Shown here in pieces: positions 2,677 to 60,216 of a DNA stretch of 64,000 bases. Below the pieces are notes generated by a model. The model did no database searches. It was not told where the DNA came from and saw only the letters and a program-made list of their open reading frames with translations. The stretch's first letter is position 1; each line of letters starts with the position of its first letter. A program made the position numbers and the translations under genes. The DNA lies in contig MGDU01000022.1 in NCBI GenBank assembly GCA_001790815.1, positions 108 to 64,107 on the forward strand, given 5' to 3'. This DNA comes from Candidatus Uhrbacteria bacterium RIFCSPHIGHO2_02_FULL_46_47. GTDB taxonomy: Bacteria; Patescibacteriota; Patescibacteriia; GWA2-47-26.

Positions 2677-3237
2677 TTATTTTTCAATCCGCGCGATCTT
2701 TTTCAGTCTTCGTACATGGCGCGGCTCGCCGGAAAATGGAGTGGCAAGCCAAATATCAATTATTGGTTTGGCTTGAGCAAAGGTTAGGGCTAGGTCGCGG
2801 GCGGCAGGATCTTTGGTTTTACCGCCGCCAAAGCACAAAACATTGGTGTCATTGTGCCAGCGACTCATCTTAGCGCTCACTTTATCCCAAGCGCGCACGG
2901 CGCGTACGCCTTTTACTTTGTTGGCCACAATACACTCGCCAATTCCAGAGCCGCCTAAGGCAATTCCCCTCACCCCAACCCTCTCCCACACGGGGAGAGG
3001 GAGAGCGTTTGAATTCCTCCTCCTTAATGGGGGAGGATTAAGGTGGGGGTGGGCTTTGGCAACCGCTTTGGCCATAGGAATTATAAAATCTGGATAATCA
3101 TCTTCTGGGTTATACTCATGCGGCCCAAAATCGCGCACTTTATAGCCGCGTTTTTTCAAATACGCCACAATTTGTTTTTTAAGCTCAAACGCGGCATGAT
3201 CCCCGGCGAGGTAGATGGTTGGCCTTGCCATAGTCAT
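2677..3237 (-). CDS. rpiB: ribose-5-phosphate isomerase B (RpiB/LacAB family) with in-frame repeat insert
   Basis: GGSGIGECIVANKVKGVRA motif. An inserted PPPLRRRNSNALPLPVWERVGVRG segment is encoded by a PSP-GEG element. Confidence 0.8.
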   Translation of the reverse strand: MTMARPTIYLAGDHAAFELKKQIVAYLKKRGYKVRDFGPHEYNPEDDYPDFIIPMAKAVAKAHPHLNPPPLRRRNSNALPLPVWERVGVRGIALGGSGIGECIVANKVKGVRAVRAWDKVSAKMSRWHNDTNVLCFGGGKTKDPAARDLALTFAQAKPIIDIWLATPFSGEPRHVRRLKKIARIEK

Positions 3238-3253
3238 CTATTCTACCGAACTC

Positions 3254-3282
3254 TTGACAAATACGCAAAATCATGCTATATT
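3254..3282 (+). promoter_or_regulatory. sigma70-like promoter (TTGACA-17-TATATT) upstream of the GC-rich ORF at 3331
   Basis: TTGACA at 3254-3259, exact 17-nt spacer, TATATT at 3277-3282. Confidence 0.5.
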
Positions 3283-3330
3283 AAAAAGGTTCTTTGATGG
3301 CAAGCCTGGGGTCTTGGCAATTCTGCCAGG

Positions 3331-3969
3331 ATGAGAGGTAAGCCAGAACATGGAGAGTGGATCATGGCAAAAAACATGGGTCCGGGTCAGAAGTCAGCGG
3401 TTCGATCGGCCGCAGGTAAGATGGCGGCGATCTGGATGGCGCTCGAGGCAGCCGTGCGTCAACGCGGTGGCAACGACGACGCGATCCTGCAGCTCGATTC
3501 GGAGGGAGCACAGTCGCTCCTCGAGAAGATCGCAGAATTGCTCGTCGCGAAGGTGGCCGTGCCTATCGTGAACGTCGCCTACCAAGCGGTGCTCACCTGG
3601 GTCATCGCGGTCTGCCGGTTCGTGTCCTACGTGGACCCGAATATCACGGCCGCGAACTTCCAGCTCCAGCTCGGAGACCTCACGCTCAAGGAAGTCATCG
3701 TCGTCGCAATCGACAAGGCGATGAGCACCGCCGACGTGCTCCAGCATCTGGACAACCAAGGTCTGCGGCCAGCCACGCTCCTGGAGCTCCTCTACTGGTG
3801 GTTGACCAACCCGAATAAGCACGCTAACTGCCTAGTGGTTGCGCTCGGACAGGTTTGGCGGGGTGGTGTGCCCTACGTCTACGGCCGCGGTGTTTGCCGG
3901 GAGCTCAGCCTCTGCGCGGTTGCGAGCGGCTGGGGTCAGGTCTGCAGCTTTGCCGCCGTCCGCAAGTAG
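3331..3969 (+). CDS. hypothetical protein, GC-rich orphan (cassette A)
   Basis: The ORF is visibly GC-rich relative to its flanks. A GGAGAG Shine-Dalgarno precedes an internal ATG at 3364. A stem-loop terminator lies downstream. No family recognised. The C-terminal 40 aa are paralogous to ORF 4309-4530. Confidence 0.55.
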   Translation: MRGKPEHGEWIMAKNMGPGQKSAVRSAAGKMAAIWMALEAAVRQRGGNDDAILQLDSEGAQSLLEKIAELLVAKVAVPIVNVAYQAVLTWVIAVCRFVSYVDPNITAANFQLQLGDLTLKEVIVVAIDKAMSTADVLQHLDNQGLRPATLLELLYWWLTNPNKHANCLVVALGQVWRGGVPYVYGRGVCRELSLCAVASGWGQVCSFAAVRK

Positions 3970-4032
3970 GTCACTTGGGCCCTGGGAACCTTGGCCTTTG
4001 CAATGTTCCATTGGACCCTTGGTTCCGTTTTC

Positions 4033-4074
4033 CCCCGCACGTTGCGTAAGCGACGTGCGGGGCGTTTCTTTTTG
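4033..4074 (+). terminator. rho-independent terminator of cassette A
   Basis: ccccgcacgttgcgtaagcgacgtgcgggg hairpin followed by a T-tract. Confidence 0.6.
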
Positions 4075-4308
4075 TGCTAAACTAACGATGGAGAGTAAAC
4101 GAAACAGTCCGCGGTCAATGAAGTTTATTCTTCTAGGCTTCGGGCGGTTGAAATCTGGGTGTACCGAAAAAGCCAGAATCATTGCGGCTACGGCTTCAAT
4201 GAGCGCGCAACGGTACAACTCTAAAAATGAAAATACTTGGTGTAGAGAAGTAGCGGGATAACGTCCCGGAATACGATTCAACCCTGAGAGTCCCGATGTA
4301 AAGTCGGG

Positions 4309-4530
4309 ATGCCACGCATAATTTTTCATTACTGTGTGGCATATTCAAAGGGTGGTGGCGCGGACGCTTCTCTACATAATTATGACGGCTTGGTTTGGCA
4401 GGGTAATGTGCCCTACGTCAACGGCAACGGTGATAACCGGAAGCTCAACCTCAACACGGTTGCGAACGACTGGAATCAGAACTACAGCTTTGCCGCCGTC
4501 CGCAAGTATCCCCATTCTCCTCCTACGTAG
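4309..4530 (+). CDS. small ORF or gene remnant carrying a lower-GC copy of the cassette-A C-terminal domain
   Basis: Region 4385-4507 aligns to 3848-3968 at the DNA level, and the last 25 nt are identical. The shared peptide is GNVPYVNGNGDNRKLNLNTVANDWNQNYSFAAVRK. Confidence 0.3.
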   Translation: MPRIIFHYCVAYSKGGGADASLHNYDGLVWQGNVPYVNGNGDNRKLNLNTVANDWNQNYSFAAVRKYPHSPPT

Positions 4531-4589
4531 GAGGAGTTTGTTTTTGGGCTTGTGAAAATGATGGAAATAGGGTAAAGTATTAAAATTAT

Positions 4590-4646
4590 GTAGTCGTCGG
4601 TCTTTAGCCGACGCACATTTCGCAGGCTGAAGACCTGCGGCTACAG
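4590..4646. repeat. double-hairpin element (R2 family, loop TCTTTAG) immediately upstream of the ileS ATG
   Basis: tagtcgtcggtctttagccgacg...gcaggctgaagacctgcggctac. The stem carries compensatory changes relative to other copies. Confidence 0.7.
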
Positions 4647-4651
4647 TTGCT

Positions 4652-7600
4652 ATGGCCAATATACCATTTCCAAAACGCGAAGAAGAAATTCTTGAGTTTT
4701 GGGATAAGAATCACGTATTTGAAAAATCTTTACAAAAACCCTCGCCAAAAGGAGAGTTTGTTTTTTATGACGGTCCGCCGTTTGCTACTGGCCTGCCGCA
4801 CTATGGTCATATTTTGGCCTCCACCATCAAAGATGTTATTCCGCGATATAAAACCATGCGTGGCTATCATGTGCGCCGGCGGTGGGGCTGGGATTGCCAC
4901 GGTTTGCCGATTGAAAATATTGTAGAGCAAAAACTGGGCATTTCTGGAAAAAAGCAAATTGAAGAGCGCGGGATTGCGGAGTTTAATCGGGCTTGTAGAG
5001 AAGGCGTTTTGGCCTATGCGGCAGAATGGGGGAAAATGGTGCGCCGTATCGGACGCTTCGTGGAGTTTGAAAATTCCTACAAAACCATGGATTCCACCTA
5101 CATGGAATCAGTGTGGTGGGCACTTAAACAAATTTGGGACAAAAAACTTATTTATGAAGGACGCAAAGTGCTTCTTTATTGTCCGCGCTGTGAAACTCCG
5201 ATTTCCAACTTTGAAGTCGCCATGGACAACAGTTATGAAGAGGTTACGGAGGAGGCGGTTATAGTAAAATTTCTAATTCACCTAATTTCTAATTCACCTA
5301 ATCAAATTCCAAATAATGCGCCGGTGTACATGCTCGCGTGGACCACTACGCCGTGGACGCTGCCGGGAAACGTGGCGTTGGCAGTGGGAGAGGAGATTGA
5401 TTATGTGATGGTGCGTACCCCCTCACCCGCTCCAACCACGGTTGGAGCACCCTCTCCCGCACGGGGAGAGGGAGATCGTTTTGATTCCTCCCCCTTGATG
5501 GGGGAGGATAAAGGTGGGGGTGAGTATCTGATCCTTGCCAAATCCCGCCTTGCAATCCTCACCGAACCATATGAAGTCGTGCAAGAAATGAAGGGTAAAG
5601 ATTTGGTTGGACTTGAATATGCGCCGCTATTTAAAGTAGAAGGACTGTCCTTGCGCGCGCGCAAAGACAGTCCTTCTCGTCGAGCTTTCAAGGTGTATCC
5701 TGCGGATTTTGTGACGACCGAAGAGGGCACAGGCATTGTGCACACGGCTGTAGTGTATGGTGAAGATGATTATAATTTGGGACTCAAATACAAATTGCCA
5801 GTGGTACCTTTGCTTGATGAAAAAGGTGTATTTAATGAAAAATCGCCAGAGCTCATCTCCGGGCAGTATTTTAAAGATTCGGAAAATACCATTAAAAAAG
5901 ATCTGGAGGCGCGGGGACTTATGTACAAGCGCGAGAAGTATACGCACTCCTATCCATTTTGCTGGCGTTGTGATACGCAGCTTTTTTACAATGCTATTCC
6001 AGCTTGGTTTGTTAAAATTTCCAAACTTAAGAAAAAACTCCTGAAACTTAATGAGAAAATTAACTGGTATCCAGAGCATTTAAAACATGGTCGGTTTAAA
6101 AATGGCCTTGAAAATGCGCCAGATTGGAATATCTCACGTAATCGGTATTGGGCTACTCCTTTGCCGTTTTGGAGATGTGTTGTGCATAACCCTCCCCAGC
6201 CCTCCCTTACCTTAAGGGAGGGAGAGAATTTAAGTCCTCCCCTTAAGATAAGGGGAGGTGCAGGAGGGGTTATGAATGGTGGCTGTGGTAACGTGGTTTG
6301 CATTGGGTCGTTTCAGGAGTTGAAGCAACGTGCGACAAATTACGACGAGGTGTACAAGTCGCATGATCTTAAGGATATTGATTTACACCGTCCGTATATT
6401 GATGAGGTGAAAATCAAGTGCGATAAATGCGATAGCGAGATGCGGCGCATTCCGGAAGTCGTGGACTGTTGGGTAGAATCCGCGTCCATGCCGTTTGCCG
6501 AGTTTCATTTTCCGTTTGAAAATCAGGAAGAATTTAAAAGGCGTTATCCGGCGGATTTTGTGGCAGAATACATTGCACAAACGCGGGCTTGGTTTTATGT
6601 CATGCATGTAATTGGTAGCGCGATTTTTGGAAAGCCGCCATTTAAAAATGTGGTTACCACTGGCACGATTCTGGCAGAGGATGGCAGTAAGATGTCTAAG
6701 TCAAAACAGAATTTTCCTGATCCGTGGGATTTGATTAATCGTTATGGTGTTGATGCTTTGCGTTTTCACCTTATGACTTCGGTTGTCATGCAAGCTGACA
6801 ATCTGAATTTTTCCGAGCGCGAGGTTGATGGGATTTATAAAAAAGTAGTATTGCTTACGCAAAATGTACTGAGTTTTTACAAATTGTATGCACCACCCCT
6901 AACCCCTCCTCCACAAGGAGGGGAAACGAATCAATTTCCTCCCCTGCCCGAGGGTATTTCCTCCCCTGCCCGAGGGGAGGCTAGGAGGGGTGGGAGCGGA
7001 GGGGTGGGAGATGTACCGTCTAATTCACGCCACATTCTTGATCGCTGGATTATAGCGCGGCTCCATGAAACAATTCGTGATATGACTGAAGGGTTAGATC
7101 GTTATGATGTAGTGCGAGCTGGGCGTTTGATTCCAGAGTTTGTAAATAATCTTTCAACTTGGTATTTGCGCAGATCGCGCGAGCGTTTCAAAAGCAGTAA
7201 AAAATCAGAACGTGAATCAGCTCTACGTACTACGTCCTACATTCTACATACTTTTTCCCAACTGCTCGCTCCCTTTATGCCGTTTTTGGCAGAACATGTG
7301 TGGCAAGAAGTTACGAGTTACGAGTTACGAGTTACGAGTTACTCGGTACATTTAGCTGACTGGCCTAAGGTGAAGAAATCCAAAATTGATACGGCACTGC
7401 TTGAGGAGATGCGAGTGGCGCGAAAAATTGTGGAATTGACGCATGCGGCGCGCGCCGAGGCAAAAATCAAAGTACGTCAGCCGTTGGAAGAATTAAAAAT
7501 TCAAAATGTAAAATTAAAAATGAGTGAGGAATTATTGAGATTGATTGCGGAGGAGGTGAATGTGAAAGAGGTGAAGATTGTCCCCTCACCTCAATCCTCT

Positions 7601-8041
7601 CCCACGGGGGGAGAGGAAGTAATTGGCAATCCCTCTCCCCGCAGTACTGCGGGGAGAGGGCAGGGTGAGGGTGGCTGGGTTACCAAGACCGACGGCACAC
7701 TTACGATTTCACTCAACACCGCAATCACTCCGGAACTTCAAAAAGAAGGTCTGGCGCGCGAGTTGACCCGTCATATTAATGAAGTGCGCAAGATTGTAGG
7801 ACTTACTCCGCAAGATACCGTGCATGTGATGGTTGCGGTGATTGCCCCCTCTCCCCCAACCCCTCTCCCCCAGGGAGAGGGTAGGGTGAGGGAAGTAGTG
7901 AAGGATTTTCAAAAACAACTGCGCAAATCCGTAATCGCGGCGTCAGTCAAGGTGGTCAACGCCCCGCAAGAAGTTGACTGGTCGCATGAGGTAGAGCTTG
8001 AAAATCACGAGAAACTTTGGGTGGGGATGAGGAGAGGTTGA
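4652..8041 (+). CDS. ileS: isoleucyl-tRNA synthetase (archaeal/eukaryote-like type) with five or more in-frame repeat insertions
   Basis: PPFATGLPHYGH and KMSKS motifs. Inserts occur at about 5418-5525, 6190-6277, 6893-7010, 7221-7252, 7313-7347, 7582-7674 and 7846-7892. Confidence 0.9.
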   Translation: MANIPFPKREEEILEFWDKNHVFEKSLQKPSPKGEFVFYDGPPFATGLPHYGHILASTIKDVIPRYKTMRGYHVRRRWGWDCHGLPIENIVEQKLGISGKKQIEERGIAEFNRACREGVLAYAAEWGKMVRRIGRFVEFENSYKTMDSTYMESVWWALKQIWDKKLIYEGRKVLLYCPRCETPISNFEVAMDNSYEEVTEEAVIVKFLIHLISNSPNQIPNNAPVYMLAWTTTPWTLPGNVALAVGEEIDYVMVRTPSPAPTTVGAPSPARGEGDRFDSSPLMGEDKGGGEYLILAKSRLAILTEPYEVVQEMKGKDLVGLEYAPLFKVEGLSLRARKDSPSRRAFKVYPADFVTTEEGTGIVHTAVVYGEDDYNLGLKYKLPVVPLLDEKGVFNEKSPELISGQYFKDSENTIKKDLEARGLMYKREKYTHSYPFCWRCDTQLFYNAIPAWFVKISKLKKKLLKLNEKINWYPEHLKHGRFKNGLENAPDWNISRNRYWATPLPFWRCVVHNPPQPSLTLREGENLSPPLKIRGGAGGVMNGGCGNVVCIGSFQELKQRATNYDEVYKSHDLKDIDLHRPYIDEVKIKCDKCDSEMRRIPEVVDCWVESASMPFAEFHFPFENQEEFKRRYPADFVAEYIAQTRAWFYVMHVIGSAIFGKPPFKNVVTTGTILAEDGSKMSKSKQNFPDPWDLINRYGVDALRFHLMTSVVMQADNLNFSEREVDGIYKKVVLLTQNVLSFYKLYAPPLTPPPQGGETNQFPPLPEGISSPARGEARRGGSGGVGDVPSNSRHILDRWIIARLHETIRDMTEGLDRYDVVRAGRLIPEFVNNLSTWYLRRSRERFKSSKKSERESALRTTSYILHTFSQLLAPFMPFLAEHVWQEVTSYELRVTSYSVHLADWPKVKKSKIDTALLEEMRVARKIVELTHAARAEAKIKVRQPLEELKIQNVKLKMSEELLRLIAEEVNVKEVKIVPSPQSSPTGGEEVIGNPSPRSTAGRGQGEGGWVTKTDGTLTISLNTAITPELQKEGLARELTRHINEVRKIVGLTPQDTVHVMVAVIAPSPPTPLPQGEGRVREVVKDFQKQLRKSVIAASVKVVNAPQEVDWSHEVELENHEKLWVGMRRG
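5418..5525. repeat. PSP-GEG palindromic element, in frame in ileS (representative copy)
   Basis: ccctcacccgctcc...ccctctcccgcacggggagaggg...gggggaggataaaggtgggggtgag. More than 20 related copies occur in the window, for example 1520-1580, 2968-3052, 6190-6277, 6893-7010, 7582-7674, 7846-7892, 13545-13662, 21903-21962, 24330-24402, 25516-25612, 27222-27312, 27478-27538, 28017-28105, 38973-39058, 40660-40745, 42512-42582 and 46790-46872. Confidence 0.8.
7313..7347. repeat. tandem heptamer (agttacg x about 4.5), in frame in ileS
   Basis: gttacgagttacgagttacgagttacgagttac encodes TSYELRVTSY. The same motif occurs in tyrS at 26078-26112. Confidence 0.75.
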
Positions 8042-10360: not shown

Positions 10361-10403
10361 GTGATATAAAATTACACTGACTTGACAAAAAATGGCATTA
10401 GGA

Positions 10404-10427
10404 TATCCTGTACATATATGTACAGGA
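10404..10427. promoter_or_regulatory. perfect 24-bp palindrome overlapping the AbiEi start codon (putative autoregulatory operator)
   Basis: atcctgtacatatatgtacaggat; TTGACA lies at 10382-10387 just upstream. Confidence 0.45.
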
Positions 10428-11035
10428 TAAAGAAGCACAAAATCTTCCATATTTCCCTTCCGCCTTTGGATCGTATTGCCGCGCTTGCGCGGCTTGGGCA
10501 AGAGGTGTTCCACGCGAGCGATCTTGCCAATCTTTGGCAGATACGGGATCCCAATACTCTTTACACCACTCTTAAGCGATATACTCAAAAAGGGCTTATT
10601 TTTCGGATCCATAAAGGTATGTATTCGATTAGGCCGCTTGATGAGATTGATCCTCTTTTGCTTGGGGTCAAAGCACTTCACCGCTTTGCATATGTAAGTA
10701 CGGAGACCATGCTTGCGCAGTACGGGGTGATTCAACAAAAAATTACCGCGATTACATTAGTATCAGACATTTCTAAGCGATTTTCAATTGGATCGCATCA
10801 TTACGTATGTCGAAAACTCAAAGATCGTTACCTTTATAATACTGCGGGGACTGTCACACAGAACAGCGTAAGGCGCGCTACTCTTGCGCGGGCAGTTGCT
10901 GATATGTTGTATTTTAATTTGCGGGCTTATTTTGACAACTTGAACCATATTGATTGGGATGCAGTGCGCGTGCTTCAAAAAAAAATAGGATATCCTTTAA
11001 CTCCGTCTCGCTATGTTTCTTCCAAAACAAAGTGA
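10418..11035 (+). CDS. AbiEi-family antitoxin (type IV TA), pair 1
   Basis: Sequence similarity to the AbiEi N-terminal domain (LARLGQEVFHASDLANLW..IRPLDEIDP), upstream of and overlapping an AbiEii gene. The start is taken at the internal ATG at 10418; the track ORF begins at TTG 10382. Confidence 0.6.
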   Translation: MYRIKKHKIFHISLPPLDRIAALARLGQEVFHASDLANLWQIRDPNTLYTTLKRYTQKGLIFRIHKGMYSIRPLDEIDPLLLGVKALHRFAYVSTETMLAQYGVIQQKITAITLVSDISKRFSIGSHHYVCRKLKDRYLYNTAGTVTQNSVRRATLARAVADMLYFNLRAYFDNLNHIDWDAVRVLQKKIGYPLTPSRYVSSKTK

Positions 11036-11768
11036 TGCCATACATAAGGCCTGGCTCTATCGTCTCCTTTCCGCAATTTACAACTCTCCCGAGCTTGCCA
11101 CAGTTTTGTATTTCAAAGGCGGAACTTGCGCCGCCATGCTGGGATGGCTTGATCGTTTTTCTATTGATTTAGATTTTGATTACGCCGGGGGAAAAAATGA
11201 GATAGTTAAAGTCCGAAGCATGCTTGAGCAGATATTTGCCGATCTTAATCTGGAGATTAAAGATTCGAGCCGTAAAACATTGCAATATTTTTTGCGCTAT
11301 CCTGTTGCACAAAAAGATATGCGCAATACAATTAAAATTGATACCACTTTTCCTTTACTAAAATCAAATCAATATGCCCCGCAACAGTTGGCCGATATTG
11401 ATCGTACTATTATATGCCAGACGAAAGAAACGATGTTTGCTAACAAACTCGTCGCTTTGATTGAGCGCTATGAGCTGCGCGAGGCAATTGCTAGCCGCGA
11501 TCTTTATGATGTCCATCATTTTTTTATGCAGGGGTTTCGGTATCACGCGCCGGTAATTTACGAACGGCGTAAAACAAAAAACCTGGCCGCATTTTTCAAA
11601 ATGCTTATTCAATTTGTGGATAAGCATATTACGCAGCGAATTATTGATCAGGATCTCAATGTACTTTTATCGCCTGACCATTTTCGCCGCGCGCGCCGGC
11701 ATCTTAAGCGCGAGACACTAATGTTTTTACGTGATGAATTGCAGCGTATTGAAGGGAAGAATAAGTGA
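11013..11768 (+). CDS. AbiEii/AbiGii-family nucleotidyltransferase toxin, pair 1
   Basis: YFKGGTCAAMLGWLDRFSIDLDFDY motif (DUF1814-type). Confidence 0.7.
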   Translation: MFLPKQSDAIHKAWLYRLLSAIYNSPELATVLYFKGGTCAAMLGWLDRFSIDLDFDYAGGKNEIVKVRSMLEQIFADLNLEIKDSSRKTLQYFLRYPVAQKDMRNTIKIDTTFPLLKSNQYAPQQLADIDRTIICQTKETMFANKLVALIERYELREAIASRDLYDVHHFFMQGFRYHAPVIYERRKTKNLAAFFKMLIQFVDKHITQRIIDQDLNVLLSPDHFRRARRHLKRETLMFLRDELQRIEGKNK

Positions 11769-22092: not shown

Positions 22093-22193
22093 ACGATCCT
22101 TGGTGAAGGCCTGCCGTATGGCAGAGATTGGTCTTTCGCAAGAAAGAATAGCCAAGGTGAACACCCATAAAATCCCTGCGTAAGCAGGGTTTT
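22093..22193 (+). ncRNA. candidate small RNA of about 100 nt
   Basis: Bounded by a consensus promoter and the ccctgc-gtaa-gcaggg+TTTT terminator. Internal helices ccttgg/ccaagg and ctgcc-gtat-ggcag. No ORF. Confidence 0.35.
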
Positions 22194-22761
22194 ATGATAT
22201 TGTAATATTTTGCAAATAACCCGTTTGTTGTGCTTTCCTCACTAGGGCTTGTGCATCCGGATGTTTAAGCAATGCACTGCGGATGCATCCTGCCCACATA
22301 TCTGCAAGACGTATTAGTGGTTCACTTTCATCTCGTTTGCTTTTCACAATACGCAGAGAGATGCCTGTTGCTCTCAGTGCGTTAGTAAGCTGTTTTGCTT
22401 TATAACGATCTATACCATCTACATATACACTTGCGCGATATGGTTGTTGTGCTACAAGTTTGATTGATTTTTCAAGCAGCTCAAGCATTGGGAAAAAATA
22501 AGGAATTGGTTTTCGGTAATGTGCTGTAAAAACACTGCCTTTTGCGATCTTTTTTTCAAGAATTATGGAAAGATATTGTATGCGCCGCGGATAAGATATT
22601 TTGTGCCATTTTAAATGATTGGTCTGTGCAATTTTCTCCGCATTAGTTAATTGCTGGCGAAGAGTTTCTTGATCACTGCTACTCACTATCGCAACTACTA
22701 CAAAGAATTCTGAACCCGCGTCTTGGCCTGCCTCATCAACATAGCAATAAAGTTTCTGCAT
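22192..22761 (-). CDS. DUF3800-family protein
   Basis: N-terminal CYVDEAGQ and C-terminal LIRLADMWAGCIRSAL resemble DUF3800 signatures. Confidence 0.5.
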   Translation of the reverse strand: MQKLYCYVDEAGQDAGSEFFVVVAIVSSSDQETLRQQLTNAEKIAQTNHLKWHKISYPRRIQYLSIILEKKIAKGSVFTAHYRKPIPYFFPMLELLEKSIKLVAQQPYRASVYVDGIDRYKAKQLTNALRATGISLRIVKSKRDESEPLIRLADMWAGCIRSALLKHPDAQALVRKAQQTGYLQNITIS

Positions 22762-22996: not shown

Positions 22997-23923
22997 ATGG
23001 GATCCAACGATTCTTTCCACGCAATGCGGCGCGGCCTGTCCGAGGGTCAATCCGAGGCGCTCCTGCGCAACGTCTGGCTTGCCGGTGGCGGCGACCAGGG
23101 CGGCAACGAGGCCGTCCATGCCCTGCTCCGCGGCGAGATGAAGGTCATCTTGCAGGACGCGATCGTTCTGCTCGTGGACGCGACCGGCCGGTGCATCCCG
23201 CTTCCCACGATCAAGGGCGAGCACGTGGATGCCAACCGCGACTTCTGCCTGGTCCAGCCCGCGATCGACTACGCCGCTATTCTCGGCCGCCTTCAGCAGT
23301 TCTTCGCGCCTGGGATGAAGTTTGTCTCGGCCGAGGAGTTCGCCAAGCAGGCCACGGCGCTCATCACGCGGATCCGTGAGACCAAGCAGGTCGCCAACTT
23401 GCTCAAGGGCGTGTGCCTGCCCATCGTCCTGCCGCAGATTACCGTCGCGAACTACGGGCAGACCCTGGAGGAGACCTTCCTTACGGCGGCCGAGCGCGCG
23501 TACCAGGCGCAGTACCCCGACCGGACGTTCTACAACTACCGCGCGGGCACGCTCGCCGGGCAGGTCCAGATCGTCGAAGAGAGCCGGCACCAGCGGCTCG
23601 TGGAGAAGATGGCCAAGGGCCCTGTGGTCCTCATCCACTTCCCAAACCCCATGCAGGGCTTCTCCATCCCGGCAGATCGCAAGATGATCAGCGCGTTGCC
23701 CGAGGGCTTCATGCTCGCAGGCGCGCTCGACACGGCGACGTCCGTCGTCGCTCACACCGTGACGCTCGCGCGTAACTACCACACACCCGGACTGGACTGC
23801 GCCGCGAACTCTTGGCGGGGCCTTTCGCTCTGCTTCAAGGCCAGCGACGACGGGCTCGGCTTCCGCTACAGGCGCCTGATCGCCGACGACGACTGCTCGG
23901 GCGGCCTGTCCTTCGTCGGGTAG
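22997..23923 (+). CDS. hypothetical protein, GC-rich orphan (cassette C)
   Basis: 308 aa with an AAAGGAGA Shine-Dalgarno and a terminator at 24005-24046; visibly GC-rich; no family recognised. Confidence 0.6.
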   Translation: MGSNDSFHAMRRGLSEGQSEALLRNVWLAGGGDQGGNEAVHALLRGEMKVILQDAIVLLVDATGRCIPLPTIKGEHVDANRDFCLVQPAIDYAAILGRLQQFFAPGMKFVSAEEFAKQATALITRIRETKQVANLLKGVCLPIVLPQITVANYGQTLEETFLTAAERAYQAQYPDRTFYNYRAGTLAGQVQIVEESRHQRLVEKMAKGPVVLIHFPNPMQGFSIPADRKMISALPEGFMLAGALDTATSVVAHTVTLARNYHTPGLDCAANSWRGLSLCFKASDDGLGFRYRRLIADDDCSGGLSFVG

Positions 23924-43467: not shown

Positions 43468-43496
43468 TTGACAATGGTTTTGCTTCATGGTAAGAG
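43468..43496 (+). promoter_or_regulatory. sigma70-like promoter (TTGACA-17-TAAGAG) for E2
   Basis: TTGACA at 43468-43473. Confidence 0.4.
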
Positions 43497-44536
43497 AGGG
43501 GTGGGTATGTAGAAGGATCAACGGACAAACTCTGAAAGGGGAAATGTCCATGTTCAAGGTCAAGCAAACCCTCATGGTTCTTTTCGGAGCGTTCACCGTG
43601 CTTTTCTCGGCCAAGATCGCCTTTGCGGCGCAGCCGACAATGGGCAGCAATGCCTGTGAAGGCGCGATCCCGCTCAAGCAGCTCGTACGTGTTGAAGTCA
43701 GAAAAGACGACTTGAGTGACTGCCCGCGCCGGGTTCGTACGCCGTATCTGTGCGCCTTGCACCGGGCCGACTTGGCTCACCGCAGTTTGAGCCATGCCAT
43801 GCGGACGACAATCGCGGATTTGGGCAACGGGACCTGCGGCCGCGTGAACCTGCGCGGCGTGCTCATCTGGACTGAAGACCGCGCGAGTCTTGAAGGAAAA
43901 AAGTTCGTGGATCTGGGTACGGAGCTGCCCAGCGGCAATCTGCGCTTTGGCGCGTGGAAAACCAACGTGCTGTATCTTGCACCTGTCTCAGGCGAGGAGC
44001 TCCTTGCTTCCTGCACAAGTGATCTGGCTGACTGCAATGCGCAGCTCGTCAAGACCGCGGTAAAATGTCCGGAACCGGAATGCCCAAAGGCCGAGAGTCC
44101 GACATTTATCCCGCAAGTTGAGAAGGGCCCAACAGGTCTTACACGAGACCCCAATAACCCGGTTTCTCGGGAAGAATTGCAAACATACGCAAGGGAACAA
44201 GACGCGATCGAGGAGGAACAATCCGCGATCGAGAGGGCACAACTTGCGATCACAAAGGAGCTGAAGCGCTTCAATGACCTTGTCGTTTTTGGGGACAAGA
44301 TTGCAGAATGCAAGACTAAAGGCCTTCTGCTCTACTCCACGGCTAAGAAGGACTGTCTGACCACAGTGGATCTAAACGCAATGCTCAACCGCCATGCACA
44401 GCAGCAGCTGGCGGCAAGTTACGCCATGGTGGACAGTCTGCGAGTGGCTCTCCGAAAATCAAGATCATGCCTGGGCAGGTGGCGCTGGTCAAGCGATACG
44501 GACGGTTGGTGCGACACCTCAAACTCAATGTGGTGA
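43487..44536 (+). CDS. hypothetical secreted Cys-containing protein, GC-rich orphan (cassette E2)
   Basis: The likely start is MSMFKVKQTLMVLFGAFTVLFSAKIAFAA (signal peptide) with a GGGGA Shine-Dalgarno; visibly GC-rich. Confidence 0.55.
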   Translation: MVREGWVCRRINGQTLKGEMSMFKVKQTLMVLFGAFTVLFSAKIAFAAQPTMGSNACEGAIPLKQLVRVEVRKDDLSDCPRRVRTPYLCALHRADLAHRSLSHAMRTTIADLGNGTCGRVNLRGVLIWTEDRASLEGKKFVDLGTELPSGNLRFGAWKTNVLYLAPVSGEELLASCTSDLADCNAQLVKTAVKCPEPECPKAESPTFIPQVEKGPTGLTRDPNNPVSREELQTYAREQDAIEEEQSAIERAQLAITKELKRFNDLVVFGDKIAECKTKGLLLYSTAKKDCLTTVDLNAMLNRHAQQQLAASYAMVDSLRVALRKSRSCLGRWRWSSDTDGWCDTSNSMW

Positions 44537-47666: not shown

Positions 47667-48152
47667 TCAGTTCACAGTATTGTTGTTGAGACTGTTTTTG
47701 AGCGCATTTAGCATGCGCACGATCTCATTTATTTCCGCATAAAGTGTTTCATAGGTTTCTTGCGTAATGTAATTTCTGCGCCGTGCTATTGCAAGACATG
47801 CGACGCATTCGTATGCTGAAGTTCGCGACATATCAATAAAATGGCCGAATTCTTTATTAGTTCGCCCTGTCCCTTCTGCTATGTTTAAAAGAATCGAGAT
47901 TACCGCACGCCGTAATTGTGATGAGAGTGTGTAAAGTTCGTGAGAAGGGAATTTATCCACAACATCATAGACATGATCAACAAGATCAAGAGTATGCTGA
48001 TATACTCGTAATTCCTCAAATCTAAATGGCATACAAGACTGTGAACAGATGTCTGATGACGGATGACTCAATTGCAAAGAAGTGTAGCATAAACCCGTCA
48101 AGGGTTCAAGGGTGGATAAGTAGCTTGACCCACATTTATTAATAATATACAA
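47667..48152 (-). CDS. four-helix-bundle protein (TIGR02436-like)
   Basis: [25 protein letters not shown]...[11 protein letters not shown]...[10 protein letters not shown]; the true start is probably MPFRF. Confidence 0.6.
48085..48110. repeat. left copy of the 26-bp direct repeat flanking the AbiE cassette
   Basis: tagcataaacccgtcaagggttcaag; partner at 49464-49489. Confidence 0.6.
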
Positions 48153-48195: not shown

Positions 48196-48771
48196 ATGGC
48201 TACTGAAAATCTTATTGCCAAACTATACCAATCCCCAAAGACAATCCTGACTACCAAAGATATCGCTTTGATCTGGCAGGAAACTAATACAGCTAATCTT
48301 ACCTCAAAGATTAAGTATTATGCTAAAGAAGGATCATTGATCCGTTTAACTCGTGGTGTATTTGCAAAAAATAAAGAGTATGATGTCAAAGAACTGGCAA
48401 CGAGTATTTATACCCCTTCCTATGTCAGTTTTGAAACAGTTTTGCGAGAAGCTGGTATTATTTTCCAACATCATGATGCAATTTTCGTAGCCGGTCCTTA
48501 TCCAATTACCAAAAAGATTAATGGTCACACCATTATATTTAGAAAACTGAAAAACAGTGTTCTCTACAACGCGCTTGGTGTCAAAAATGAAAAGAATTAC
48601 AGCATCGCCACGCCAGAGCGAGCCTTCCTCGACACCATCTATTTATCTCCTAAATTTTATTTTGACAACCTGCGATCCATTAATTGGGAGGTATGCTTTG
48701 AGCTTGCCAAAATATACCATAATAAACAATTAATTAAGCGAGTTGCGGAGTACCAAAAGCATGCTCAATAA
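48196..48771 (+). CDS. AbiEi-family antitoxin, pair 2
   Basis: Paralogous to 10418-11035 (same architecture); upstream of and overlapping an AbiEii gene. Confidence 0.55.
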   Translation: MATENLIAKLYQSPKTILTTKDIALIWQETNTANLTSKIKYYAKEGSLIRLTRGVFAKNKEYDVKELATSIYTPSYVSFETVLREAGIIFQHHDAIFVAGPYPITKKINGHTIIFRKLKNSVLYNALGVKNEKNYSIATPERAFLDTIYLSPKFYFDNLRSINWEVCFELAKIYHNKQLIKRVAEYQKHAQ

Positions 48772-49471
48772 AGAAAAACATCAGCTGATCATGGGACAGA
48801 TTCTCCGGGATATTTATTCCGATACTTCCATCTCTCCGCTCATTGGATTTAAGGGCGGCACCTGCGCCTACTTTTTCTATGGCCTGACCAGATTCTCTGT
48901 TGATCTGGACTTTGATTTGTTTTCTACCGACGACGCTACACAAAAGATTGTGTACGAAACAATTGGTGGCATACTCCGAAAATATGGGGAAGTCAAGGAT
49001 AACTATATAAAACGAAATACTATTTTTTTTCTGCTCTCTTATGGTGATGCAGACCATAATGTTAAAGTTGAGGTAAATGTAAGAATTTTTATGCCGAATA
49101 TCAGAGAGCACTACGAGCTGAAAGAGTATCTTGGAATTTCTATGCTTGCCGGCAAGAAAGATTATCTCTTTGCAAGCAAGCTCTCTGCGCTGACTGATCG
49201 AAGATTGCTTGCCATGCGTGATATTTACGATATCTGGTATTTTGCTAAAAACAATTGGGATATCAACGCTGCGGTAGTGAAAGCAAGAACCGGAAAAACC
49301 ATTAAAGAACATATGGCCAATTGCATTTCAGTTATCGAAGCAGTAAAAGACAATGAAATCCTGCGCGGACTGGCTGAACTTTTACCAGATGAAAAGGAAA
49401 AAGCGTGGGTCAAAACACACTTGCGGAAAGAAGTTATCTTTCTACTTAAAAATTACATGTCCGTAGTATAA
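48743..49471 (+). CDS. AbiEii/AbiGii-family nucleotidyltransferase toxin, pair 2
   Basis: GFKGGTCAYFFYGLTRFSVDLDFDL. Confidence 0.7.
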   Translation: MRSTKSMLNKEKHQLIMGQILRDIYSDTSISPLIGFKGGTCAYFFYGLTRFSVDLDFDLFSTDDATQKIVYETIGGILRKYGEVKDNYIKRNTIFFLLSYGDADHNVKVEVNVRIFMPNIREHYELKEYLGISMLAGKKDYLFASKLSALTDRRLLAMRDIYDIWYFAKNNWDINAAVVKARTGKTIKEHMANCISVIEAVKDNEILRGLAELLPDEKEKAWVKTHLRKEVIFLLKNYMSVV

Positions 49472-58911: not shown

Positions 58912-59493
58912 ATGAGTACTAAACTACAATTGAAAAAATTCCAAATCGTTCTTTTGCAATTGTATGCTGGATATCGGGAACTTGACCATGCACTCGCTTC
59001 ATATAAGCCAAGGAGTCATACGCCCGGATGGGACTCTACTGGCTATAGTGAGCGCGAGCGAAAATTAGCAGAGCGTGAAATAAAATATCTTTATAAGCGT
59101 ATTGAATATTTAAAGCGGTGCAATTATATTCAAATGGTTAAGGAGGGAGAGGAAAAATTATTGAAGCTTACTTCAAAAGGAAAATATGAACTTTTGCGTT
59201 TACGGTTTGTAGAACACATGCTCATGCAGAAGAAACAATCATGGGCGCGCAAGTGGTGGATATTGATTTTTGATATCCCAGAGTCACAAAAGAAGTATCG
59301 TAATTTTTTCCGCCGATTTTTGAAACAAAATGGTTTTAAGATGGTACAACGTTCAGTTTGGATTACGCCATACAACCCGGAATCTGCCTTAGTTGATCTT
59401 TTGAGATACCTAAGGATTGAAAAATATTTTGAACTTATTGAAGCAGATTGCGAGCGATGTAGTACCACACTTTTAAAAAAATTCAAACCATGA
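58912..59493 (+). CDS. PaaX-like/Cas2-fold putative regulator (tentative)
   Basis: The C-terminal segment WWILIFDIPESQKKYRNFFRRFLKQNGFKMVQRSVWITPY follows a Cas2/PaaX_C-like pattern. The N-terminal half is helical. There is no CRISPR array nearby. Confidence 0.3.
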   Translation: MSTKLQLKKFQIVLLQLYAGYRELDHALASYKPRSHTPGWDSTGYSERERKLAEREIKYLYKRIEYLKRCNYIQMVKEGEEKLLKLTSKGKYELLRLRFVEHMLMQKKQSWARKWWILIFDIPESQKKYRNFFRRFLKQNGFKMVQRSVWITPYNPESALVDLLRYLRIEKYFELIEADCERCSTTLLKKFKP

Positions 59494-59617: not shown

Positions 59618-60216
59618 TGGATGCTTACAAAAAGCTGGATGATCGCTCCGACTTAGGTCGGGGAGGAAAGTCCGAACACCCCCGCAGTAATGTGGGAAAA
59701 AGGTACCACCTAACGGGTGGGCAGTATGACGGGGATATCATCCGGTCATCCGATCGGACAAGAAACTCCGCTGACGGATCAGTGCCACAGAGACAATACT
59801 AATCGTGCCTCACTATCATTCGGCACTCCGTTACGAATTACGAATCTTGTACGAAACTACGAAACAACAAATTTGTAGTTTTGTAGCGACATTTGTGGAT
59901 TCGTACACAGAGCACCGAGCGACAGTGAGGTGCGGTGAAAGGTGAAAAGTGAAGGAATGTTAATCGCTTACACAAGCCTAAAACTTGTGAAAACGAGAAG
60001 GCTATTCTTCTTACCGTGGGGTAACTCACGGCGTTGGAAAACCCTACCTGGTGCAACGCCATTTACGGCGGCTTGAGGTCCCGCGCGAGTGGGATCCCAG
60101 AGAGATGATCATTAAACCACAGATCTTACAACACAGATCACACAAATATCTGTGAAAATCTGTGATCAAAATCTGTGGTTACAGAATTCGGCTTACGGGC
60201 TTTTTGTAAGCATTTG
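59618..60216 (+). ncRNA. rnpB: RNase P RNA (bacterial type, extended to about 600 nt)
   Basis: P1 pairing between tgcttacaaaaagc (59622-59635) and gctttttgtaagca (60199-60212). Conserved GGAAAGTCCGAACAC (P4 5' strand), ACAGAGACAATAC, and ACAGAATTCGGCTTA near the 3' end. An extended helix of cacagatc/gatctgtg repeats at 60115-60175. Confidence 0.7.

Follow-up and report, generated by a model that had tools for sequence, protein, structure and literature searches.

The 64,000-nt stretch of Candidatus Uhrbacteria DNA analysed here (contig MGDU01000022.1, referred to as the window) raises the question of why the 3' end of a GC-rich gene is found a second time further downstream, in a copy which differs from the first and is lower in GC content. 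The two copies are almost certainly the variable repeat (VR) and the template repeat (TR) of a diversity-generating retroelement (DGR). Judged by its sequence, the upstream copy forms the VR which ends the target gene, and the downstream copy reads as a non-coding TR. No larger targeted diversification of proteins is known in microbes than that produced by DGRs, which are especially common in bacteria of the candidate phyla radiation (CPR). For positions 3254-4546 as a whole, the interpretation favoured here, with a probability of about 0.5, is that of the target-plus-template half of a DGR from a clade restricted to the CPR (Patescibacteria), for which the reverse transcriptase (RT) and the Avd protein would be supplied in trans. 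The trans service is the weaker half of this interpretation. The features of the locus are listed in Table 1.

The repeat forms an ungapped alignment of 117 nt at an offset of 540, with 96/117 identical positions (82%). A first-pass annotation had described a duplication of 3848-3968 at 4385-4507; the duplication and its offset are real, but the coordinates were 1-3 nt off and have been corrected to 3852-3968 and 4392-4508, and the identical 3' tail comprises 24 nt (3945-3968 and 4485-4508, CAGCTTTGCCGCCGTCCGCAAGTA) instead of 25. This 24-mer is present at only two places in the 64-kb window. The same two places are the only ones matched there by a 73-nt pattern of the downstream copy in which the adenines were masked to N, and neither the 24-mer nor the masked pattern found a match in dinucleotide-shuffled sequence.

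All 21 mismatches are located at positions where the downstream copy carries an adenine, with G (15), T (5) or C (1) in the upstream copy, and none of the 86 non-adenine positions of the downstream copy differs. For the confinement of all mismatches to the 31 adenine sites, a hypergeometric P of 5.7e-16 was calculated. The bias described before as G-to-A is one-sided indeed, but it affects adenines of the downstream copy throughout, including those opposite T and C. In the frame of the upstream open reading frame (ORF; start at 3331 or 3364, end at 3969), the 21 mismatches fall on codon positions 1 or 2 and none on position 3. The direction of transfer is from a template adenine to any base in the gene and not that of a G-to-A decay.

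The downstream copy is lower in GC, as had been noticed, because the adenines lost from the gene copy are kept there, its nine AAY codons included. One of the two readings offered by the first-pass annotation, the remnant of a native low-GC gene, is contradicted by the absence of differences at the 86 non-adenine positions and at third codon positions, since the decay of a remnant would be expected to leave differences at every base type, predominantly at third positions. The other, a cassette-style copy of a C-terminal module, came close in so far as a dedicated template cassette is present, but left the mechanism unnamed, so that neither reading arrived at a DGR. Since the mutable adenines occupy positions 1 and 2 of AAY codons, the gene can be recoded without the creation of stop codons; only two AAG codons of the downstream copy could be turned into a stop by adenine change. 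Randomization of its adenines would allow about 10^17.6 peptides and would rewrite up to 22 codons. A metagenome scan with the adenine-masked TR gave 0 matches, and thus no further VR or TR copies there.

Table 1. Features of the putative target-plus-template locus, in window coordinates
Feature	Position	Strand	Details and basis
Putative sigma-70-type promoter of target gene	3254..3282	+	TTGACA, 17 nt, TATATT, TG before -10
DGR target (variable-protein) gene	3364..3969	+	201 aa; ORF list
Variable repeat (VR)	3852..3968	+	last 39 codons of target gene; ungapped match to 4392-4508
IMH-like (initiation of mutagenic homing) VR 3' end	3945..3968	+	identical to TR 3' end
Stem-loop just 3' of VR	3985..4009	+	GGAAC...GTTCC, flanked by CTTGG/CTGGG motifs
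Predicted intrinsic terminator of target gene	4033..4072	+	13-bp stem plus T-tract; terminator scan
Extended -10-like box for template RNA	4075..4083	+	TGcTAAACT; aligned loci
Conserved structured RNA domain directly 5' of TR	4089..4391	+	covariation; best-modelled sub-domain 4216-4391
Template repeat (TR)	4392..4508	+	non-coding; 31 adenines, 9 AAY codons in VR frame
8-bp stem, ACGT tetraloop, U-tract	4517..4546	+	8 nt after TR; terminator scan

The target gene is preceded by a probable promoter which agrees with the consensus at 11 of 12 positions in a consensus scan. The start site at 3364 is supported by homologues of the target protein, which begin at MAKNMGPG; an alternative ATG at 3331 would extend the protein to 212 aa. 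The exact protein sequence occurs in Candidatus Uhrbacteria assemblies from groundwater, and the window corresponds to positions ~50-64049 of MGEO01000010.1. The protein is composed of an N-terminal helical region and a C-terminal domain of about 118 aa bearing the VR. No match was identified in Pfam, NCBIfam or among PDB sequences. A word-based search with the protein gave 11 homologues only, and a profile search with the family retrieved 2,814 representatives at 50% clustering (E <= 1e-3). Most members have a length of about 200 aa; some contain two or three matched stretches, which suggests repeated domains. The W-x-G-x-VPYV...FAAVRK tail, for which a database search had been proposed, turned out to be a conserved scaffold of this family. 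The alignment shows variable columns framed by the residues W, V, G, R, L, L, F, A and V, which are invariant; these variable columns are the adenine-containing codons of the TR.

In an AlphaFold2 model of the target protein, the N-terminal part is helical and the C-terminal domain is predicted with confidence (pLDDT 88.6, pTM 0.82). In a Foldseek comparison of the C-terminal domain to the PDB, 49 of the top 50 matches were C-type lectin-like domains, with alignments that cover almost the entire domain, none of these matches being significant (best E 0.058, TM 0.33-0.52). The model is suggestive of a C-type-lectin-like domain which would display the VR on one face.

The target gene has a GC content of 63%, compared to 47% for the remainder of the window. 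This GC richness extends along the full length of the gene, beyond the VR, in 12 of 13 loci (window, L004, L009, L016, L062, L129, L131, L132, L135, L136, L142 and L144), with 55-67% versus 42-51% in the remainder of each locus; the target gene of L060 shows a small excess only (44% versus 39%). In the window, the third-position GC of the target gene is ~80%, compared to ~45% in the genes for IleRS, TyrRS and RpiB, and A and T are both depleted at its third positions. Adenine mutagenesis does not explain the GC richness of the target genes.

At the 3' end of the VR, the IMH-like segment contains a core of 12 nt consisting of G and C only (GCCGCCGTCCGC, 3952-3963), which is conserved on the DNA level among homologous loci of other lineages sharing only ~30-55% protein identity. 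An internal mismatch of the IMH/IMH* kind is absent from the window pair, and one was identified in L004. The stem-loop shortly after the VR folds in 10 of 10 homologous loci, with stem sequences which differ in most of them, and is a candidate for a target-recognition hairpin or cruciform. For the phage DGR, target recognition was described to involve the IMH plus a hairpin (Guo et al. 2011, PMC3240598), and the layout of the window, with its IMH-like end and hairpin after the VR, matches this description. A hairpin with a T-tract was also seen in homologous loci at the position equivalent to that of the target-gene terminator.

Two further short elements were observed in this region. CTTGG/CTCGG motifs are found on either side of the hairpin that follows the VR (window 3975-4025) and at the equivalent places in all homologous loci, and AUACUUGGU (window 4233-4241) is almost invariant in the 5' domain of the RNA across the homologous loci. 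Both could be a coincidence or a recognition element.

The spacer of ~420 nt between VR and TR is conserved across related CPR lineages and contains, in this order, the terminator of the target gene, a -10-like box and a structured RNA which extends from ~4089 to the TR; the template RNA gene lies ~120 nt 3' of the target gene. In the aligned loci, the -10-like hexamer is located 5-9 nt upstream of a conserved GGATAGTAAACG start and would represent the -10 box of the template RNA; a two-hexamer promoter scan did not detect it. For the RNA domain, RNAalifold predicted 58 pairs from an 8-locus alignment, of which 37 showed compensatory changes. The 3' sub-domain was used for a covariance model, designated R1 (126 positions, 26 pairs), which scored 119.7 bits in the window at 4216-4391, compared to 115-134 bits in complete cassettes. 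R1 matched every TR-bearing locus searched at the expected place, including seven outside its building set (L131, L142/L143, L144/L145, L146 and L147). On 11 sequences, 95.8% of the cells were paired, and 19 of the 26 pairs changed on both sides. The covariation score of 0.676 was reached by 0 of 500 shuffles (0.292 +/- 0.026), and a score of at most 0.265 was obtained when the partners were slid.

No Rfam family matched the RNA domain, either in the window or in the canonical cassettes, and no description of it was found in the DGR literature searched. A two-hairpin insertion within the RNA is common to the window and L004. Pairing of the 5' end of the RNA or of its GGUGG segment with the TR flanks was looked for by eye and rejected, being inconsistent across loci. 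The stem-loop with U-tract after the TR probably terminates the template RNA, and it is also similar to the stem-loop downstream of TRs which was described to bind Avd (bioRxiv 10.1101/2023.10.23.563531); an equivalent was identified in most of the homologous loci whose sequence extends that far.

Homologous cassettes in other CPR bacteria place the pair in its context. Locus L016 from Niyogibacteria contains the TR ~500 nt downstream of the target, then an avd gene on the opposite strand and a gene for a 326-aa RT with LGNLTSQ and YADD motifs. In Pfam, this RT matches RVT_1 and the Avd matches bAvd, while the best NCBIfam match of the latter is DivGenRetAVD, just below the cut-off of that model. 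L062 from Saccharibacteria likewise consists of TR, avd (opposite strand) and RT, and in L144, from an NCBI genome, the RNA domain detected by R1 is accompanied by avd (opposite strand) and RT. In the metagenomic locus L132/L133 the TR is followed by the RT. In L142 and L146, from NCBI assemblies, the RNA domain detected by R1 is followed by the RT, with a truncated Avd call in L146 in addition. The metagenomic loci L009, L135 and L136 contain TR and avd and then reach the contig end, and L147, a short contig of an NCBI assembly without the target, contains RNA domain, avd and RT. The canonical order in several CPR lineages is target, RNA/TR, avd on the opposite strand and RT. The RTs of these relatives are 67-83% identical to thousands of CPR RTs. 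Differences between TR and VR are restricted to TR adenines in six of seven other loci (L004, L009, L016, L062, L135 and L136); for the pair of L132, the ungapped register also gave non-adenine differences.

A parallel to the window is L004 from Magasanikiibacteriota, with a target of 53% amino acid identity, which represents a second RT-less module; here, RuvC follows the TR. The TRs of the window and of L004 differ at 20 positions where neither has an adenine, and at 20/20 of these each VR follows its own TR, which shows that the transfer from TR to VR continued after the two lineages had split. A scan with the pattern CTGG-N15-TTYGCCGCCGTCCGC gave four distant CPR relatives and L004 again; the pattern is loose, and its at least 119 stretches were mostly chance matches in GC-rich genomes.

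A known system for comparison is the DGR of Bordetella phage BPP-1, with its components mtd VR, TR, avd and brt. The window resembles it in having a target gene that ends with the VR, in the adenine-specific differences, the AAY codons of the TR, the GC-rich identical 3' end of the IMH kind, the hairpin after the VR and the stem-loop just 3' of the TR, and possibly in the C-type-lectin-like variable domain, for which the window is only suggestive. In BPP-1, however, avd, TR and brt follow each other on one strand, and a large protein-binding RNA scaffold (Sp) is located 3' of the TR, where it binds RT and Avd and primes cDNA synthesis (PMC6182149; bioRxiv 10.1101/2023.10.23.563531). In contrast, the window and all related CPR cassettes carry the large structure 5' of the TR and a single U-tract stem-loop 3' of it; avd, where present in the CPR cassettes, is encoded on the opposite strand, and the window is devoid of both avd and RT. 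A survey of TR flanks by the authors of the Bordetella phage RNA work covered only 40 nt upstream and 100 nt downstream.

By its host, Candidatus Uhrbacteria, the locus agrees with the DGRs of CPR bacteria described as the CPR set by Wu et al. 2018 (PMC5758913) and as clade 2 by Roux et al. 2021 (PMC8144416), and its single small target without a known motif is like the unknown VR classes of the former. Both catalogues start from the RT gene and would therefore miss a TR/VR module without an RT on its contig; Roux et al. 2021 concede that VRs not adjoining the RT would be missed. Dispersed components acting in trans are also a feature of DGRs with remote targets, as in Treponema denticola and others (Wu et al. 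2018, PMC5758913). There, however, the TR stays beside the RT and additional VRs are remote, whereas in the window the TR travels with its target, and RT and Avd are elsewhere or lost. In Trichodesmium erythraeum, the TR is transcribed from its own promoter as a discrete, abundant non-coding RNA (PMC4143802). The window resembles this arrangement in that its TR belongs to a putative RNA gene of its own; in contrast to the window, the Trichodesmium TR lies beside an (interrupted) RT gene and serves 12 targets (PMC4143802).

On these grounds, a course of events can be proposed for the locus. The template RNA would be bound by a DGR RT and Avd via its flanking RNA structures, and the TR would be copied into cDNA with random bases inserted opposite adenines, a step whose outcome is visible in the difference pattern. 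By analogy to known systems, the cDNA would then replace the VR, guided by the common GC-rich 3' end and by the hairpin located 3' of the VR. Such a replacement could rewrite up to 22 codons on one face of the C-type-lectin-like domain. RT and Avd would have to be supplied in trans from elsewhere in the genome.

For such a trans service, it can be stated that the window RNA scores as high as the RNAs of complete cassettes, that the RNA domain, the promoter-like box and both hairpins are intact, with zero non-adenine mismatches between the repeats, and that L004 presents a second RT-less module in a different genomic context, the transfer from TR to VR having gone on after the split of the two lineages. 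A far-reaching form of the proposal is that of a split DGR, a self-contained module of target and template RNA which would comprise a promoter of its own, a structured 5' domain of ~300 nt, the TR and a terminator stem-loop. Lacking RT and Avd in cis, the module would be kept by no fewer than two CPR lineages, Uhrbacteria and Magasanikiibacteriota, and serviced in trans, with the 5' RNA as an undescribed scaffold replacing the 3' spacer RNA of Bordetella phage. This form is put forward tentatively, at odds well short of even.

Several observations weigh against the favoured interpretation. The start of the IleRS gene is located 143 nt 3' of the TR, where relatives carry avd and RT. A region of ~78 kb was searched, comprising the 64-kb window, 5.5 kb upstream (L001) and ~9 kb beyond the window end (L139), and neither an RT nor a DGR-type Avd, intact or degraded, was identified in it. 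No YxDD motif was present in any frame, a Pfam scan of 38 ORFs gave no RVT match, and neither tblastn for RT and Avd nor six-frame profile hidden Markov models (80 RTs, 24 Avds) gave a match in the region; the positive controls of the latter search on L016 detected the RT with E = 1e-190 and the Avd with E = 1e-52. In an RT homology search (8,000 CPR RTs), no named Uhrbacteria RT was among the 120 matches listed, none of the 19 matches of an Avd search came from the assemblies of this Uhrbacteria population, and no RT or Avd of this genome was found in the supplements of published DGR surveys. Further, no variation of the VR was observed, which is identical in 17/17 contigs (90% cluster) and in four assemblies of the population (GCA_001791415.1, GCA_001791555.1, GCA_001791005.1 and GCA_001791195.1); as a test of VR diversity this comparison is weak, because the contigs belong to one near-clonal population with 99.87-99.98% identity. 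The fold support for the C-type-lectin-like domain is weak, and a possible decay series among the relatives, described below, has to be added to these points.

The missing Avd was also looked for among local genes of the 23S_rRNA_IVP/bAvd-like type, and these were rejected as not being of the DGR-linked Avd type, which counts against the favoured interpretation as well. Free-standing genes for four-helix-bundle proteins are located at 47667-48152 (minus strand) in the window and at 3606-3959 (minus strand) of L001, ~5 kb upstream of the target. The product of the former scored 111.6 bits with TIGR02436 versus 33.5 bits with DivGenRetAVD, and the two 23S-rRNA-IVP/four-helix-bundle proteins had no blastp match to DGR-linked Avds below E = 0.018. 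Both genes are generic 23S-rRNA-IVP paralogues and thus distant paralogues of Avd.

The strongest rival to an active module is a relic, in which avd and RT were lost recently, nothing reverse-transcribes the TR any longer, the VR has stopped changing and the RNA/TR unit would be the next part to be deleted. This is a serious alternative, to which only slightly less than an even chance is given. It draws on the absence of RT and Avd, not even fragments of which remain, on the invariant VR, and on several close relatives in which the target was identified with no TR nearby (L129/L006, L137, L148 and L149). Among these, L148 has a target with 67% amino acid identity to that of L004 and is syntenic with it on both flanks. 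A comparison of L148 1860-2000 with L004 10640-11300 showed that exactly the ~490-nt RNA/TR unit between the target terminator and ruvC is missing, with the -10 box of the unit left in place, which looks like a deletion. However, an intact module with 0/86 non-adenine mismatches, in which the RNA domain, the promoter-like box and both hairpins are preserved, requires a very recent loss if it is to be a relic. The same intact RT-less state, with TR and VR in register at 20/20 positions, exists in a second lineage in another context. Moreover, the TR-less targets L129 and L148 retain the IMH-like end, L129 also the hairpin, as expected of remote targets in use, which suggests that components are often dispersed in this target family.

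The remaining alternatives concern the nature of the repeat itself and are far less probable than a relic. The downstream copy lies within an ORF of 73 aa, as had been reported, at 4309-4530, and this ORF might encode a small protein in its own right, a paralogue of the C-terminal domain, since it is open, starts with an ATG, and gives a product which shares 60% identity with the C-terminal 40 residues of the target protein. This is very improbable, for the first 28 codons overlap RNA helices which are backed by compensatory changes, no locus other than the window and L004 has the insertion in which the ATG lies, other loci show no conserved start in the frame upstream of the TR, and the Pfam scan, which was the search covering this ORF, gave no match. 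A template copied from coding sequence will necessarily be open in the frame of the gene; the ORF is the VR frame carried into the template, an artefact and not a gene.

A plain segmental duplication of the 3' part of the gene, with the non-coding copy drifting to low GC, would account for two copies 540 bp apart of which the second is lower in GC and within a short ORF. It is refuted by the substitution spectrum and the homologous cassettes, since drift would strike all bases and favour third positions, while 21/21 differences concern one base and none is at position 3, and since the two-copy arrangement recurs in at least seven other lineages adjoining RT and/or avd genes. Strand-specific hypermutation of a duplicated segment, of the deaminase-type or the repeat-induced G-to-A kind, could be read from the 15/21 differences which are G/A, but hardly merits consideration, given that the other 6 are T/A or C/A and not products of cytosine deamination, that the adenine-bearing copy is the conserved one with AAC-rich TRs in every locus, and that the changes keep to the first two codon positions of the other copy.

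Further observations were made in the remainder of the window. Several housekeeping ORFs contain in-frame insertions of short GC-rich, partly palindromic repeats, namely those for RpiB (2940-3060), ribulose-phosphate epimerase (1260-2051) and IleRS (4652-8041), in the latter at several sites, for example at ~5380-5560 and ~7590-7730. The insertions are translated into motifs such as PLPxGERG, PSPxxGEG and GGV and recall the Rickettsia palindromic elements, which insert in-frame. The related 11-mers ACCCTCACCCT and AGGAGGGGTTA occur seven times each in the window. A dispersed small palindromic repeat, GCCGGTCTTTAGCCGGC, is present with its variants in ~7 copies (1805, 4598, 14245, 20706, 29377, 33408 and 44627), one of which lies in the leader of the IleRS gene, directly behind the TR terminator (4590-4650), and another inside the epimerase ORF.

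The strongest GC island of the window is an ORF of 308 aa at 22997-23923 (plus strand), with 65% GC and a third-position GC of ~90%, which adjoins a DUF3800 gene at 22192-22761 (minus strand). It had no significant Pfam match and no NCBIfam match, and its C-terminus (...NSWRGLSLCF...GLGFRYRRL...) faintly recalls lectin-type DGR variable regions. A second GC-rich ORF of 349 aa at 43487-44536 (plus strand) has no Pfam match and an N-terminal hydrophobic segment, and no repeat of its 3' end was found in the window. Both islands were considered as further TR targets and rejected, as there was no repeat in the window and no profile similarity.

At 59627-60211 (plus strand), a match to bacterial RNase P RNA spans 585 nt compared to 367 positions of the model, so that the gene must carry large insertions. 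A first AbiEii toxin gene was identified at 11013-11768 (Pfam call from the identical L001 gene), with a weak AbiEi-like ORF at 10382-11035 before it, and a second one at 48743-49471, which is preceded by an ORF of 191 aa without a Pfam match (48196-48771). PaaX_M/Cas2-like genes are located at 58912-59493 and, just past the window, at 12473-13141 of L138/L139.

With respect to the DGRs of CPR bacteria, the points worth following are the conserved 5' RNA domain and the lack of RT and Avd near the locus. A repeat signature biased to a single base can find DGR modules which are invisible to RT-based pipelines. The covariance model of the 5' RNA domain provides a handle for finding templates directly, and the domain itself permits testing whether the organization of the DGR ribonucleoprotein in CPR bacteria departs from the Bordetella phage model. 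If the locus is a relic, it documents, together with its relatives, a stepwise decay of DGRs in which RT and Avd are lost first and the template thereafter. Should the module be active, a template RNA can be served by RT and Avd from a distance, and the estimate of hypermutated targets would widen.

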